Shown here in pieces: positions 25,504 to 30,323 of a stretch of 64,000 nucleotides of DNA. This DNA is from Acidobacteriota bacterium. Lineage in GTDB: Bacteria > Acidobacteriota > UBA6911. The DNA is taken from the NCBI GenBank assembly GCA_016934295.1, contig JAFGTD010000082.1, forward strand, positions 72-64,071, read 5' to 3'. The notes under the pieces are model-generated. The model made no database searches, was not told where the DNA came from, and saw only the letters and a program-made list of their open reading frames with translations. Each line of letters begins with the position of its first letter. Positions within the stretch are counted from its first letter, which is position 1. Position numbers and translations under genes: made by a program.

Positions 25504-26000
25504 TTAATTCCCCGACAACAGCTTTGTATCAATCCGGACCTGTGCTGATTCAGAACCATCTGCGTTGGCAGTGACGTTCACAGCTCCTGATTTTACTTCG
25601 ATCGATCTGATAATCAGCATAGCCTTGCCGTGAAACAGGCTGTGACTGGACGACCGGAACGGTTCCATGGACAGGGGGTTGCCGTTGCCGATACCCGCGA
25701 TCTCGGCGGGACCGTCCACGCTGAAAGTCCCCTTGTCATCCGATAACGGGCAGGGATTGCCTTCACCGTCCACCACTTCGAAATCGCGCATAAAGGCCAC
25801 CCGCTCAGCGGTCTTTCCCCAGCCTTTTTCTCCTGTTCCTATTTCATTTCCGATCGACCACAGGACCACGCTCGGATGGTTGCGGTCGCGCATAACAAGA
25901 TTTTTTATCTGCCTTTCGCCGAATATCTCCAGAGGCTCGTCGGTCCCATGATCCGCGGTCCCTTCCCATTCTGTAAGCGACAGGGTTTTCGGATATTCGG
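25504..26000 (-). pseudogene. Internally deleted GH2 (beta-galactosidase-like) remnant
   Basis: RDRNHPSVVLWSIGNEI catalytic motif joined directly to the C-terminal Ig domain (VVDGEGN...FSVDGPAEIAGIGNGNP...LFHGKAMLIIRS). Confidence 0.8.
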
Positions 26001-26016: not shown

Positions 26017-27198
26017 TCATCTTTCTTCCCCACTCTGTATTAAAGACTCATCCGCCTCTTTATTGGAAGGTATCTGTAAAATTCCGTTACCTTCTACGTC
26101 CTCCAGATCGCACCACCACTTCTTTGTGTAATCGGGCTTCCCGTAACCCAGGACATCATCCAGCCAGGGGGCGAGGCTTCTGGCCAGGGATGAATGGCGG
26201 AATAAAGCACCGGCGGCACGATGCAGGGGCGTATACGGCTTGTTCCAGGGACAAACGGTCAGGCAGGTGCCGCAGCTGGTGCCTTTCTGGTTCCCAACCC
26301 GCATGGACGTGCATTTTTTTATGTCACCGGGCCAATGCTCATACCCTTTTTCCATAACCTTGTCGCCGTCGCTCAGCGCTCCGGACGGGCATTCCCGTGC
26401 ACATTTCCTGCACTTGGTACAGAAGTCCTGGAGGCCGAAATCGATGGGCTTGTCTGCAAGCAGGGGCAAATCGGTGGTGACGATCCCGGCTTTGAACCTG
26501 GGTCCCAGAAACGGATGAAGAACGCATTCGCTCATACGGCTCATCTCGCCCAGTCCCGCCCATAGAAGTATAGGTGGAACGATGACCTGGTAATTCATGG
26601 CGTGATGCGCCCGGGCAGGGTAGCCGAGTCTTCGAATGTAATCCGCTACTAGACAGGCAATGAAACCGGAAGCGGAATAGGCAACAAAACTCATCGCATT
26701 GCTGATCCAGTCGCTGCCGGTCGTGGCGTCGGCCGTTTTCGAATCCTGGTCCACAAGAATGGCAACCGCATATTTATGGTCGAGCGTAATCGCCCCCCCC
26801 GTTGCCGCACTGTGAGTGTATACGGCGTATCTAGGAAGCTCACAAATCCCGACGGCATCGGCTCGGAGAAAATAGGCCGTTTCCTTAATATGGTGCGACA
26901 GATAGACGGGATCCTTTGATATGGGCGCCTCCCGCGCTGCAACGGGCCCGTCTACCATTTCACGCATTCTCAGCTGCATGGCCATAAGGGAAGCGGAAAG
27001 CGGATGCTTTACGGAGAAACGATTTCTCTCCCTTTGAAGAAAAGGACCGAACTCTCCCCGCAGAGCCCGGTTGAACCCATGGTCCTGCTCATGAACCCTC
27101 CGTATTTCCTCCTCATGTATTTTTATGGTCGGACGATCGACCCTTTTGATTTTGTGCATCGGGAAGGTTTCCCGTTCACGCCTCAGATACCCGCTCAT
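26017..27198 (-). CDS. rdhA: Reductive dehalogenase-like B12/2x[4Fe-4S] protein without TAT signal
   Basis: KIKRVDRPT, FLRADAVGICE, AGLGEMSR, GPRFKA, TTDLPL..DKPIDFGLQDFCTKCRKCARECP, C-X12-CGTCLTVCPWN; GGAG RBS before ATG 27198. Confidence 0.8.
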   Translation of the reverse strand: MSGYLRRERETFPMHKIKRVDRPTIKIHEEEIRRVHEQDHGFNRALRGEFGPFLQRERNRFSVKHPLSASLMAMQLRMREMVDGPVAAREAPISKDPVYLSHHIKETAYFLRADAVGICELPRYAVYTHSAATGGAITLDHKYAVAILVDQDSKTADATTGSDWISNAMSFVAYSASGFIACLVADYIRRLGYPARAHHAMNYQVIVPPILLWAGLGEMSRMSECVLHPFLGPRFKAGIVTTDLPLLADKPIDFGLQDFCTKCRKCARECPSGALSDGDKVMEKGYEHWPGDIKKCTSMRVGNQKGTSCGTCLTVCPWNKPYTPLHRAAGALFRHSSLARSLAPWLDDVLGYGKPDYTKKWWCDLEDVEGNGILQIPSNKEADESLIQSGEER

Positions 27199-27308
27199 AA
27201 TTTCTCCCAGGATGGATTCAAAACCTGCCAGCATCATACCTTCATCTTCAAATTCAGGTGAATTATTTTGTTTCGTTGCGCGGATACAAAAGAAAAGACA
27301 TTTTTTTC

Positions 27309-27345
27309 TTGACAAAATATTATCTAGTACTATCATATAGTACTA
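27309..27345 (+). promoter_or_regulatory. Sigma70 promoter with a putative BlaI operator; likely leaderless transcript
   Basis: TTGACA 27309-27314, TATCAT 27331-27336; TAGTACTA-N5-TAGTACTA at 27325-27345 overlaps the -10 box and ATG 27345. Confidence 0.7.
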
Positions 27346-27725
27346 TGAGACCTAAAAATAATACCCTCAGCGGGCCACAACTCGACATTATGAAAGTAGT
27401 CTGGCGGCTGGGCGAAGCAACCGTGCGAGACGTTTACGAGGATCTGCGCAGCCGGCGCTCCATCGCCTACACAACCGTCATGACCACAATGAAAACCATG
27501 GCAATCCGGGGACACCTGAAAAAGAGGACCGAAGGCCGGGCTTTCGTCTATGCAGCCACCACACCCGAAACCAGAATGCTCAAAGGGATTGTGGGCGATT
27601 TTATCAACCGGGTCTTCAACGGGTCTACCGAGCCTCTACTGGCGCATTTGGTAAAGGAACGGCGTCTTTCCGAAAAGGACCTGGAAAAAATCCGCAAGAT
27701 GATCCGGGAGGAAGAAAAGCAGTAA
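27345..27725 (+). CDS. BlaI/MecI/CopY family transcriptional repressor
   Basis: QLDIMKVVW...TVRDVYE...IAYTTVMTTM...GRAFVY...FINRVFNGS. Confidence 0.93.
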   Translation: MRPKNNTLSGPQLDIMKVVWRLGEATVRDVYEDLRSRRSIAYTTVMTTMKTMAIRGHLKKRTEGRAFVYAATTPETRMLKGIVGDFINRVFNGSTEPLLAHLVKERRLSEKDLEKIRKMIREEEKQ

Positions 27726-27746
27726 ACCTTAACCTGAGAGGACACC

Positions 27747-30011
27747 ATGGCACTCCCCGTCTGGATGGACAACCTCCTCGCCTATTGTCTGCAGATGGCG
27801 ATTCTGGCTGCCGCGGGCACACTGTTGGCGTATATCTTCCGTCTGCGCATTCCGCGGATATCGCTCATCTACTGGCAGGTTCTTCTGATCGCCTGCCTGG
27901 CACTTCCCCTTATGCAGAAGTGGGAAAAACCGGCCGCCGTTTCCACGGATGTCACCATTCAGATGACGGAAATGACAATCCCGAATACGGGTACGGGAGT
28001 GGTTTCATCCCCGCCATCGAGTCCGAAGATATCGGCAACCGATGCCGTTGTGCTGATATTTGCGGCGGGGGCATTGCTGCGGCTGTTTTGGCTGGCCCTC
28101 GGTTTTTACAGGCTGCGCCTGTTATTGCGCCGATCGGAACCGATCGACCGGATGCCGCCTGTCGCCGAAAGAATTTCTTCACTTATCGGTGTTCGGGCGC
28201 GCTTCTATCTGTCCGATGAAACGGACAGTCCCGCTACATTTGGAATCTTCAATCCGACGGTCATCCTGCCCCGGACATTTCCTGAAATGCGCGAGGCCTG
28301 CAGGGAAGCCATCCTTTGCCACGAACTCCTGCACGTACGGCGGCGCGACTGGGCGCTGATATTTATTGAAGAGATGATACGCACCCTTTTCTGGTTTCAT
28401 CCCGCCGTCTGGTGGCTGCTCTCAAGAATCCATCTTACCCGGGAACAGTCCGTGGACCATGAAGTCGTCAGACTGACGGGAAACCGGCAGCCTTACCTGG
28501 ATTCATTGCTGGAAATCGCCCGGAAGCTCGGGCGTCCCAGGGCGGTTCCGGCACCGCTTTTCCTGAGAGAGCGCCACCTGGTCGAGCGGGTCGCTCTGTT
28601 GATAAAGGAGGTTTCCATGAATCGATTGCGATTGGTGCTCAGTTTATCCGGAATAGCCGTGATCCTGGCGGGAACGGTAAGTCTTGCCGCCGGGTGGTTT
28701 CCTCTAACAGGTCCGGCTTTAATTGTCCAGGAAGAGATCTCTGCTGAGAAAATCGATTCTCAACAGGTTCATCTCCCCGACGCTCAGTCAGATCCAACTC
28801 CGGCACCAACACCCCAGACGCAAACCGTTTCCCAACCGATCAGGCTGAAGCAACCGACAGGCAGCGAATCAAACGGTAAGTTCGAGCTGCATTATTCGGA
28901 TGCGGATCTGAGGTCTTTTATTCAGCAGATCTCCGAACTTCTCGGTCTGACGCCGCTGATAATCGATCCGGAGGTACAGGGAACCGCTACCGTTCATAGC
29001 TCGGAGCCGATATCGAAAAGGGAAGTCCTTGACCTGTTTAACCTTACCCTCAAAAACAATAATGTATCTTTGATCAAGCAGAACGGTATTTATCTGGTTG
29101 TACCATTATCCGCCGACCTGAAAACGGATGTCGACAATATCAAACATCAGGCAGCGTACATCACATATGAAACCACGCCGAAGAATTCAGCGATACCTCG
29201 TCAGGAAGAAGGCGGCATAGTGGGGAAAATACCTGGTGGCGTTGTCGGTAGTTTTGTCGGTGTATCAGACGATCCGGGATCGGGAGGAGGGACCGATACC
29301 AGCGAGGGTGCGTTTGTAGGTCCTGGAGAGGGCGGTGGCATGGGGAGTTATTCTTCCCGGCAAACCACGACAAGAATCGGCAGCAATGTTCTCCAATCCA
29401 AACTCATTCACCGGGTCGCACCTGTTTATCCTGAGGAGGCCAAAGCCGGACAAGTCATATTAAATATAACCGTGAATGAAAAGGGCGAAGTCTCGAACGT
29501 TGAAGTGCTTGACGGCGATCCGCTTTACATTGACGCCGTTGTGGCGGCGGTGAAGCAGTGGAAGTACGAACCGACCCTTCTGAACGGCACACCCATTCCG
29601 GTTATCTCCACCATTACTGTAAAACGTAATGTTGTTTCACCCACGCAGTTTGTTTCGCCCACGGAAATACCGATAAATCCGAACCCCGAAAATGCCGAAT
29701 GGATTGACGGCAATGTTCTTCAATCCAAACTCATTCACAAGGTTGATCCCGAGTATCCTGAACTGGCCAGGCGAGCGCGCGTTAAGGGGAAAGTCAATTT
29801 AGCCGTAACTGTAACCGAAGAAGGCTATGTCTCCAACGTTGAAGTGATTGGCGGCCATCCCATGCTCCGGGACGCTGCTGAAAAAGCAGTAAAGCAATGG
29901 AAGTATGAACCGACTGTACTGAATGGCAAAGCGATTCCTGTCATCGCAACGGTTACAGTTGATTTTGTTTTGCCGGAAGATACGGAAACCGACGAGTCCC
30001 CGCCAATGTAA
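27747..30011 (+). CDS. BlaR1-like M56 peptidase fused to a secretin N0-like domain and two TonB C-terminal domains
   Basis: SPATFG...HELLHVRRRD...WFHPAVW...REQSVD (M56); DADLRSFIQQISELLGLT-LIIDPEVQGTATV (GspD N0-like); two YP...VKQWKYEPT.LNG TonB_C repeats. Confidence 0.85.
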   Translation: MALPVWMDNLLAYCLQMAILAAAGTLLAYIFRLRIPRISLIYWQVLLIACLALPLMQKWEKPAAVSTDVTIQMTEMTIPNTGTGVVSSPPSSPKISATDAVVLIFAAGALLRLFWLALGFYRLRLLLRRSEPIDRMPPVAERISSLIGVRARFYLSDETDSPATFGIFNPTVILPRTFPEMREACREAILCHELLHVRRRDWALIFIEEMIRTLFWFHPAVWWLLSRIHLTREQSVDHEVVRLTGNRQPYLDSLLEIARKLGRPRAVPAPLFLRERHLVERVALLIKEVSMNRLRLVLSLSGIAVILAGTVSLAAGWFPLTGPALIVQEEISAEKIDSQQVHLPDAQSDPTPAPTPQTQTVSQPIRLKQPTGSESNGKFELHYSDADLRSFIQQISELLGLTPLIIDPEVQGTATVHSSEPISKREVLDLFNLTLKNNNVSLIKQNGIYLVVPLSADLKTDVDNIKHQAAYITYETTPKNSAIPRQEEGGIVGKIPGGVVGSFVGVSDDPGSGGGTDTSEGAFVGPGEGGGMGSYSSRQTTTRIGSNVLQSKLIHRVAPVYPEEAKAGQVILNITVNEKGEVSNVEVLDGDPLYIDAVVAAVKQWKYEPTLLNGTPIPVISTITVKRNVVSPTQFVSPTEIPINPNPENAEWIDGNVLQSKLIHKVDPEYPELARRARVKGKVNLAVTVTEEGYVSNVEVIGGHPMLRDAAEKAVKQWKYEPTVLNGKAIPVIATVTVDFVLPEDTETDESPPM

Positions 30012-30323
30012 ATTTCAGCGATGTGAAAAAAATAGTCGATATAGCCAGGGGGGCGGGTAAGGATGAAATCGGGTTGGTTACAGCAAAAATCCGTTAGAAC
30101 ATCTATCAGAATTCGATAGAAAGGGGAGGCCTGAACGGTCCGCCCCTTTTTGCATTCCTCCTCTTAAATAGGCCGGTATTACGCTTTGGCTCTCTTGTGT
30201 GAGGTAAATAATGAAACAATCACCCACATAATAAATCCGCGCGGGACAGAGATAATGCCCGGATTCTTCAGGGGAATGAGTGCATCCGCCCGCGGTTATG
30301 TCAGGCATTCCTACGCTTACCGC

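Follow-up and report, generated by a model that had tools for sequence, protein, structure and literature searches.

A conserved 21-bp palindromic element at the predicted leaderless start of blaI, a putative operator of a self-contained blaI-blaR module in UBA6911 Acidobacteria

Introduction

Repressors of the BlaI/MecI family autoregulate their genes through dyads of 24-30 bp, with one dimer bound (PMC1935004). In the 64,000-nucleotide (nt) stretch of contig JAFGTD010000082.1 analysed here (the window; assembly GCA_016934295.1, from an Acidobacteriota bacterium of the UBA6911 lineage), a gene for such a repressor, blaI, lies back to back with rdhA, a gene of the reductive-dehalogenase family, and a palindromic 21-bp element runs into the blaI start codon. 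The locus raises two questions: whether this element is the operator of BlaI, and whether BlaI, together with the membrane protein BlaR encoded after it, also switches the dehalogenase-like gene. A sequence-only reading of the window had proposed both, with rdhA in the position that blaZ takes in the bla system. We consider it likely that the element is the operator of the BlaI encoded downstream of it and autoregulates a self-contained blaI-blaR module, with rdhA independent of it. The first proposal holds up well, with every property expected of a BlaI operator in the blaI promoter present in the sequence, and the second is not supported: the adjacency to rdhA is rare and of single origin, and there is no operator at the rdhA promoter. 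Genomes, contigs and loci are referred to by our own G, C and L labels where they need to be told apart.

The 21-bp element and the blaI promoter

The element consists of two copies of one 8-mer, TAGTACTA (27325-27332) and TAGTACTA (27338-27345), separated by TCATA (27333-27337), as read directly in the window. The A at 27345 is both the last base of the second copy and the first base of the blaI ATG (27345-27347). Each unit is palindromic, and the whole is equally one 21-bp dyad, TAGTACTAT-CAT-ATAGTACTA, centred on 27335; the element can be read either as two 8-bp palindromes 13 bp apart or as a dyad of 19-21 bp with a 5-nt spacer.

A promoter scan of the plus strand identified a -35 hexamer, TTGACA (27309-27314), preceded by an A/T-rich stretch, and a -10 hexamer, TATCAT (27331-27336), with a spacer of 16 nt and 11 of 12 consensus positions matched. 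The -10 hexamer lies inside the element, with 8 bases between it and the A of the ATG, and neither a Shine-Dalgarno sequence nor any purine-rich stretch is found 5' of the blaI ATG. The putative operator (27325-27345) consequently takes in the -10 box and the discriminator as well as the predicted transcription start and the initial base of the start codon. Sequence and promoter scan thus bear out what the sequence-only reading had described, namely a combined direct and inverted repeat overlapping both the -10 box and the A of the start codon, and an ATG 8 nt past that box without a Shine-Dalgarno sequence.

Conservation and uniqueness of the element

An orthologue of this BlaI, 65-82% identical, is present in 14 of the 30 genomes of the genus. 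We used as protein-anchored loci the 13 at which the 5' end of blaI is on the contig, a set that is unbiased with respect to the inner arms of the element and the start codon. All 13 share one layout: TTGAC(A/T) at a fixed distance, 16-17 nt, [T/A]AGTACTA, five A/T-rich bases, TAGTACT and ATGAGACC. TACTA (-17 to -13) and TAGTACT (-7 to -1) are invariant throughout, and the left unit is variable at its three outer bases (T/A, A/T and G/A). The -10 box of the relatives, at the same place, reads TATTAT, TATTAA or TAATAA, with the T at -7 and the A at -8 before the ATG kept.

Public metagenome contigs, collected by a pattern in which inner arms and start codon were preset, extend this picture. The scan (core plus start codon) returned 42 contigs, 41 of which have the same promoter layout, including TTGAC(A/T) wherever a contig is long enough to reach the -35 region. 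A recognisable BlaI gene lies downstream on 39 of them, followed by an M56 gene where sequence suffices, and blaR follows blaI in every related locus with enough sequence.

Within the genus, matches with at most one mismatch occur in 12 of 30 genomes, as one copy per genome and each time at the blaI start. A mismatch search found the pattern in none of the other genera of the family. Beyond the family it has a single match with one mismatch, in a genome (G053) of another family of the class, which we rejected as a BlaI site: it belongs to a HicA/HicB-like gene pair and not to a BlaI gene. At this locus (L166; G053:C1:3642147-3642168), TTGACATTC-AGTACTAGTTTTTAGTACT stands before the HicA-like/HicB-like pair, next to a terminase-like gene, and its repeats are arranged in the same way, as an AGTACT-N7-AGTACT pair that follows a TTGACA. 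This match shows that like sequences can serve other regulators.

In the genome itself the site stands alone. The 8-mer TAGTACTA occurs twice in the window, both times within 27325-27345, against 0.15 copies expected, and three times in the 5.45-Mb assembly, two of them in this element; TACTA-N5-TAGTA and AGTACT-N7-AGTACT occur once each in the 5.45 Mb. A weight matrix derived from 23 distinct related sites gives the element 32.6 bits, in the range of the real sites (27-37 bits), and the runner-up 17.4 bits, a gap of 15 bits. The runner-up lies 5' of a BlaI paralogue on contig C154 and was discarded, the block common to that paralogue and its sister being a different sequence. Mismatch search, core patterns and weight matrix revealed no second operator in the genome, so that the motif singled out by the sequence-only reading has one genomic site, at blaI. 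ACTA, TAGT and CTAG belong to the least frequent tetramers here, which contributes to the uniqueness of the site. Over the whole genome the rarest tetramers are CTAG, CTAA/TTAG and ACTA/TAGT, and GTAC stands at 84% of its Markov expectation.

A predicted leaderless start

The blaI gene is very probably leaderless, because 11 of the 13 genomes offer no other possible start codon: they contain no ATG, GTG or TTG between the in-frame stop and the conserved ATG. That stop lies at most 36 nt 5' of blaI in 10 of the 13 (the TGA inside TTGACA, or a nearer stop), and the start codon is ATG in all 13. The upstream starts that the window itself would allow (GTG at 27258, TTG at 27276 and TTG at 27309) were rejected on the same grounds. 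A later start is equally unattractive: the next ATG encodes Met16, and since the Pfam match begins at residue 12, starting there would cost the first helix. blaR and the five other BlaI paralogues of the genome have clear Shine-Dalgarno sequences, and the presence of one at blaR indicates that its absence at blaI is gene-specific. The locus therefore combines the sequence features of a leaderless mRNA, with a -10 box within ~10 nt of the ATG, no Shine-Dalgarno sequence and no alternative start, in agreement with the sequence-only reading.

A -10 box at -14 to -9 would place the transcription start between -2 and +1. In an alternative register, -12 to -7, which includes the conserved A(-8) and T(-7), the predicted start would fall exactly on the A of the ATG. 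Leaderless genes seem to be in use in this genome, since the rate of long open reading frames (ORFs) is doubled after such a pattern: where a strong promoter is followed by an ATG at 5-9 nt, an ORF of at least 100 codons follows in 16 of 34 cases, compared with 22% for random ATGs. Another candidate leaderless promoter, TTGACATGTGTTCATTTTACGATGTAAAATGAACACATG, is located on contig C65 (775-815, outside the window), where a 12-bp inverted repeat (TGTTCATTTTAC/GTAAAATGAACA) runs into the ATG of a 380-codon ORF.

The blaI-blaR unit

blaI (27345-27725, plus strand) encodes a winged-helix repressor of 126 residues of the BlaI/MecI/CopY family, which matches PF03965 (Penicillinase_R) over residues 12-121 with E=1e-30 and 106.8 bits against a cut-off of 22.6. 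Its best matches in the PDB are MecI, BlaI and the BlaI of Mycobacterium tuberculosis. In an ungapped alignment, His101-Leu102 takes the place of the cleavage site of MecI, so that the scissile Asn101-Phe102 bond of BlaI/BlaR1-type switches is absent; the M. tuberculosis protein has His-Phe here.

blaR (27747-30011, plus strand) starts 21 nt after blaI, with its own Shine-Dalgarno sequence, GAGAGG (27736-27741), 5 nt before the ATG. Its product, a membrane protein of 754 residues, contains an M56 domain (PF05569, 96.7 bits) with an intact HEXXH motif, HELLH, and is the BlaR1-type partner that the sequence-only reading had assigned to BlaI. The extracytoplasmic part consists of a secretin-N0-like domain and two TonB_C domains, in the place of the penicillin-binding (transpeptidase-like) sensor.

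About 110 nt past blaR lies a terminator-like G+C-rich hairpin with a U run (30117-30152, plus strand; -18.9 kcal/mol, z = -2.1), which a consensus terminator scan did not report because its stem is imperfect. It is followed by a convergent peptidase-U32-like (U32-like) gene. The predicted hairpin and the convergent gene after it delimit a unit of two genes. A search for a conserved output gene 3' of blaR in the other genomes yielded only unrelated metabolic genes, namely a short-chain dehydrogenase (SDR) gene and two family III CoA-transferase genes, which five genomes share in this position. No flanking direct or inverted repeats, as signs of a mobile element, were found around blaI-blaR.

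The genome contains six BlaI paralogues. One of them, on contig C152 (23850-23910, outside the window), is likewise followed by an M56 gene and has a TTGACT promoter, a normal Shine-Dalgarno sequence and two canonical boxes, TTACATATGTAA and TTACAAATGTAA, of the TTACAnnTGTAA type. Together with the GTAC-type element described here, these boxes indicate that both operator types coexist in one genome.

Proposed regulation of the module

We propose that transcription starts at, or within ~3 nt of, the A of the blaI ATG and gives rise to a leaderless mRNA, from which blaR would be translated by means of its own Shine-Dalgarno sequence and which would end at the hairpin. BlaI bound to the dyad would occupy positions -20 to +1, covering the -10 box, the discriminator and the start, and may thereby block open-complex formation. 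By analogy with BlaI/BlaR1, a signal reaching the extracytoplasmic N0/TonB_C part of BlaR would activate the M56 zinc protease, which would then cleave or otherwise inactivate BlaI, so that the operon is derepressed and later repressed again. Since no second site exists in the genome, the module may regulate only itself. We tentatively entertain, as less than an even bet, that this is the single operator in the genome and that the switch has no output besides the sensor-protease; in that case BlaR would act as sensor and at the same time be the sole induced product.

The two readings of the element allow different stoichiometries. A variant in which two BlaI dimers bind, one to each 8-bp palindrome (centres 13 bp apart), in place of one dimer on the 21-bp dyad, is possible though on balance unlikely. 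Both units are full [T/A]AGTACTA palindromes in 20 of the 23 distinct sites, and paired operators are common in the family: the paralogue on C152 has its two boxes, CopY has two operators (PMC7253601), and the BlaI sites of Clostridium thermocellum take four protomers (PMC8457756). However, half-sites only 4 bp apart within an 8-bp palindrome would bring two winged-helix domains very close together, the outer left bases are the least conserved of the element, and its total length of 21 bp fits the dyad of a single dimer (PMC1935004).

The divergent rdhA gene

The neighbour of blaI on the opposite strand, rdhA (26017-27198, minus strand), encodes a cytoplasmic protein of 393 residues. It matches TIGR02486 with 194.1 bits against a cut-off of 160.35, covering only profile positions 83-314, and matches Fer4 families; profile score and two 4Fe-4S motifs together assign it to RdhA. 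Read by eye, its N-terminus, MSGYLRRERETFPMHKIKRVDRPT, is charged and contains no hydrophobic stretch, and no ORF of 60 residues or more that could be an rdhB-type anchor gene lies between rdhA and the next gene. The protein therefore appears to lack the twin-arginine signal peptide and the adjacent rdhB of respiratory-type RdhA. The start at ATG 27198 was set by the orthologues, in which the initial MSGY is conserved behind a GGGAGA-type Shine-Dalgarno sequence, and the intergenic distance to blaI is 146 nt, as the sequence-only reading had estimated. A longer ORF of 439 residues, from an ATG at 27336 inside the operator, was rejected: the orthologues, each with a Shine-Dalgarno sequence, align only from Met47 (ATG 27198), and in G022 and G023 the ATGs further upstream are in another frame.

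Directly upstream of rdhA is a block (27199-27251, minus strand) with the Shine-Dalgarno sequence GGGAGA (27203-27208) and a -10-like TATGAT (27233-27238), which forms part of the predicted rdhA promoter, TTCACC-18-TATGAT. Between loci with and without blaI, the 53 to 120 nt directly 5' of rdhA are homologous, and in the blaI-less locus of G022 the homology stops near 27251. The stretch between this block and the blaI promoter is not conserved. When window positions 27252-27308 are compared with loci L019, L144, L164 and L013, a deletion of ~57 nt is seen in the spacer of this genome, G004 and L132; an older rdhA upstream stretch is retained in the spacer of G023, L144 and L164 and in the blaI-less G022. 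The operator keeps a constant position with respect to blaI and not with respect to rdhA, from which it is separated by 146 to ~205 nt. Between it and the predicted -35 box of rdhA lie 62 bp, and the weight-matrix scan detected no operator-like sequence nearer to rdhA. We also considered a promoter on the minus strand within the operator, with TATGAT (27332-27337 in reverse complement), and rejected it: TATTTT would have to serve as the -35 box, and the promoter scan gave no such hit. An operator overlapping the divergent promoter and a conserved pairing of the two genes, which mark a divergon, are both lacking here. Most likely, rdhA has its own proximal promoter region and is not under BlaI control.

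The synteny points the same way. rdhA is the divergent neighbour at 3 of the 13 blaI loci of the genus (in this genome, G004 (UBA6911) and G023), and on 3 of the 29 metagenome contigs with at least 600 nt 5' of the operator. The other upstream neighbours among the 13 loci include a glycerol-dehydrogenase-like gene, a glycoside hydrolase family 2 (GH2) gene and an outer-membrane-protein-like gene. Element and blaI-blaR occur together in at least five different gene contexts. We also surveyed 80 rdhA-family loci with 5-kb flanks (from Desulfobacterales, Syntrophorhabdales, Chloroflexota, Acidimicrobiia and others) and found a BlaI or M56 gene at one, the UBA6911 record itself, on which tblastn and the BlaI profile agree. 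The conserved synteny that the sequence-only reading would lead one to expect is thus not observed.

In a tree of 40 BlaI sequences, all five that are encoded next to rdhA fall into one group (support 91/77; none of 500 label shuffles was as good), which indicates that the adjacency arose once, by a single relocation. The rdhA most similar to this one, at 91% identity, is that of G022, and it has the same flanks: an acyl-CoA ligase/acyltransferase fusion gene and an alcohol dehydrogenase gene before rdhA, and the U32-like gene and three further genes after it. Between rdhA and the U32-like gene, a spacer of 500 nt replaces blaI-blaR, and the rdhA-proximal block, including TATGAT, is retained. 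The blaI-blaR pair of G022 is located on a different contig and belongs to another branch of the BlaI tree. The gene trees of G022 (L013, L036) conflict in this respect, with rdhA and its flanks closest to this genome and BlaI, encoded elsewhere, on a different branch. This suggests that the blaI-blaR module has been exchanged or relocated within the genus, and we propose that, as a portable module, it came to lie between rdhA and the U32-like gene on one occasion, in the ancestry of this genome. By the synteny and the trees, the adjacency to rdhA is a one-off rearrangement and not a conserved regulatory link.

Could BlaI/BlaR nevertheless also control the divergent rdhA in this clade, as blaI-blaR1 controls blaP or blaZ? 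We regard this as improbable. Control might be exerted through looping, promoter interference or supercoiling coupling between back-to-back promoters ~50 bp apart, and the idea draws on the divergent arrangement with just 146 nt between the genes, on a regulon without any other output gene, on the persistence of the adjacency across a clade that comprises at least 5-6 lineages and has rdhA identities of 70-86%, and on the 57-nt deletion, which moved both promoters closer in this genome, G004 and L132. Against these stand the rarity and single origin of the pairing, the locus of G022, which has rdhA, its proximal block and its flanking genes without blaI-blaR, and an operator that lies away from the -35 and -10 boxes of rdhA at a distance that is not conserved. 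Still less probable is a capture of rdhA by the switch in this one clade, in which derepression of the strong, predicted leaderless blaI promoter ~50 bp away would alter rdhA transcription through supercoiling or polymerase interference. If true, it would be the first proteolytic (BlaI/BlaR-type) control of a gene of the reductive-dehalogenase family, with an envelope signal received through TonB_C/N0 domains; a full-text literature search returned no title or abstract that connects a reductive dehalogenase with BlaI.

Points against an autoregulatory operator

Several observations weigh against our proposal of a BlaI operator that controls blaI-blaR alone. The canonical TACANNTGTA core is absent from the element, and with His-Leu at the cleavage position, cleavage of BlaI by BlaR can be put forward only by analogy. 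The regulon would contain only the regulator and the protease, without an obvious output. Several relatives have a weak -10 hexamer (TATTAA, TAATAA), which makes its exact register uncertain, and BlaI binding is predicted, as are the transcription start and the two promoters. Finally, the adjacency to rdhA has been retained across its clade, which fits neutral retention of gene order and is still compatible with a function.

The least probable of the readings, that the conserved sequence is a promoter or leaderless-initiation element, or the site of a DNA-binding protein encoded elsewhere, could appeal to the missing canonical core, to a right half that is constrained anyway by its overlap with start codon and discriminator, to the variable outer bases of the left palindrome, and to the HicA/HicB-like locus of another family with its AGTACT-N7-AGTACT behind a TTGACA, but a promoter needs no two-fold symmetry, TACTA/TAGTA is invariant at all 13 BlaI-anchored loci, the element is found nowhere else in the genome, and binding of BlaI-family proteins to inverted repeats 5 nt apart is documented (PMC8457756). 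That the element and blaI-blaR turn up together in unrelated neighbourhoods argues that the factor recognising the element is a product of the module itself, which makes BlaI, its only DNA-binding protein, the candidate.

Comparison with known systems

The module shares with the bla/mec divergons of Bacillus licheniformis and Staphylococcus aureus a PF03965 repressor and an M56 zinc protease (HEXXH), a dyad operator over the regulator's own promoter and a divergent neighbour gene; the gene order blaI-blaR is that of B. licheniformis. In contrast to these systems, in which a TACANNTGTA core lies inside a dyad of 24-30 bp (PMC1935004, PMC7253601), the element here is TAGTACTA-N5-TAGTACTA, of 21 bp. 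The target promoter of the divergons has a dyad of its own, whereas the promoter of the divergent gene has none here. Their sensor binds penicillin, and BlaR has the secretin-N0-like and two TonB_C domains instead; the cleavage position is N101-F102 there and H-L here, and blaI is predicted to be leaderless here.

A closer parallel is provided by C. thermocellum, in which BlaI_0696 binds inverted GTCTAT repeats 5 nt apart, as determined by DNA affinity purification sequencing (DAP-seq) and gel shift, and the regulon of BlaI_1845 consists of its own blaI-blaR1 operon only (PMC8457756). Both there and here the sites are non-canonical inverted hexamers with a 5-nt spacer (GTCTAT-N5-ATAGAC and GTACTA-N5-TAGTAC), and the regulons are tiny and autoregulated, as predicted for the present module. 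The half-site sequences differ, the C. thermocellum sites are two pairs of inverted repeats, and the operons there carry extra possible output genes, whereas blaI and blaR stand alone here. BlaI operators that depart from the canonical core and have a 5-nt spacer, and regulons limited to the regulator's own operon, thus have precedents (PMC8457756). What is new here is the half-site GTACTA and the unusually complete fusion of operator, -10 box, predicted transcription start and start codon.

The M. tuberculosis pair BlaI (Rv1846c)/BlaR (Rv1845c) has the same gene order, and the structure of its repressor (2G9W) is among the best PDB matches of the BlaI described here, with H-F at the cleavage position resembling H-L. 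The operator sequence of M. tuberculosis BlaI differs from that of the UBA6911 module, and the mycobacterial regulon is said, by Sala et al. in 2009, to include blaC and other genes. The sensor architecture of M. tuberculosis BlaR is also unlike that of the UBA6911 protein. M. tuberculosis BlaR is itself atypical in that it lacks a beta-lactam sensor domain, and atypical BlaI/BlaR pairs of this kind are present in mycobacteria and Pseudomonas (bioRxiv 10.64898/2026.08.03.742534).

With its M56 and TonB_C domains, BlaR resembles the M56-TonB_C fusions, for example TonB1 and TonB10 of Bacteroides thetaiotaomicron, the latter with two TonB_C domains (PMC10350073). Among M56 architectures, the combination of this domain with one or two TonB_C domains after it ranks second in frequency (bioRxiv 10.64898/2026.04.08.717257), and such fusions are common, with none characterised (bioRxiv 10.64898/2026.04.08.717257; PMC10350073). 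UBA6911 BlaR differs from them by the additional secretin-N0-like domain, and the present module allows its cognate operator and autoregulatory unit to be predicted. The locus thus provides an M56-TonB_C system of uncultured UBA6911 Acidobacteria with a sharply defined, genome-unique putative operator and a compact predicted leaderless promoter, which makes it directly testable in a heterologous host.

Known regulators of rdhA genes, such as CprK (of the CRP/FNR family), the MarR-type RdhR and two-component systems, are encoded beside the rdhA genes, as BlaI is here. They bind dehaloboxes or operators in the rdhA promoter, and the pairing of regulator and target is conserved. The UBA6911 locus has neither a site in the rdhA promoter nor a conserved pairing. 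Adjacency to the dehalogenase-like gene should therefore not be read as co-regulation, a point relevant to predictions of organohalide responses from gene neighbourhoods.

Further observations on rdhA and its surroundings

The short, signal-less rdhA family to which this gene belongs (L044-L123; 43-70% identity) is widespread in Desulfobacterales, Syntrophorhabdales, Chloroflexota and marine and sponge-associated Acidimicrobiia, as well as in Entotheonella and one Hodarchaeota bin. An acyl-CoA-ligase/acyltransferase-like neighbour recurs at 8 of the 80 rdhA-family loci.

Between rdhA and the alcohol dehydrogenase gene, an ORF of 129 residues (25504-25893, minus strand) corresponds to the end of a GH2 TIM barrel and C-terminal domain 5, and is the remnant of a beta-galactosidase gene; in G023 the remnant is in two pieces (L018). 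Full-length GH2 genes are the divergent neighbours of blaI in G005 and G010.

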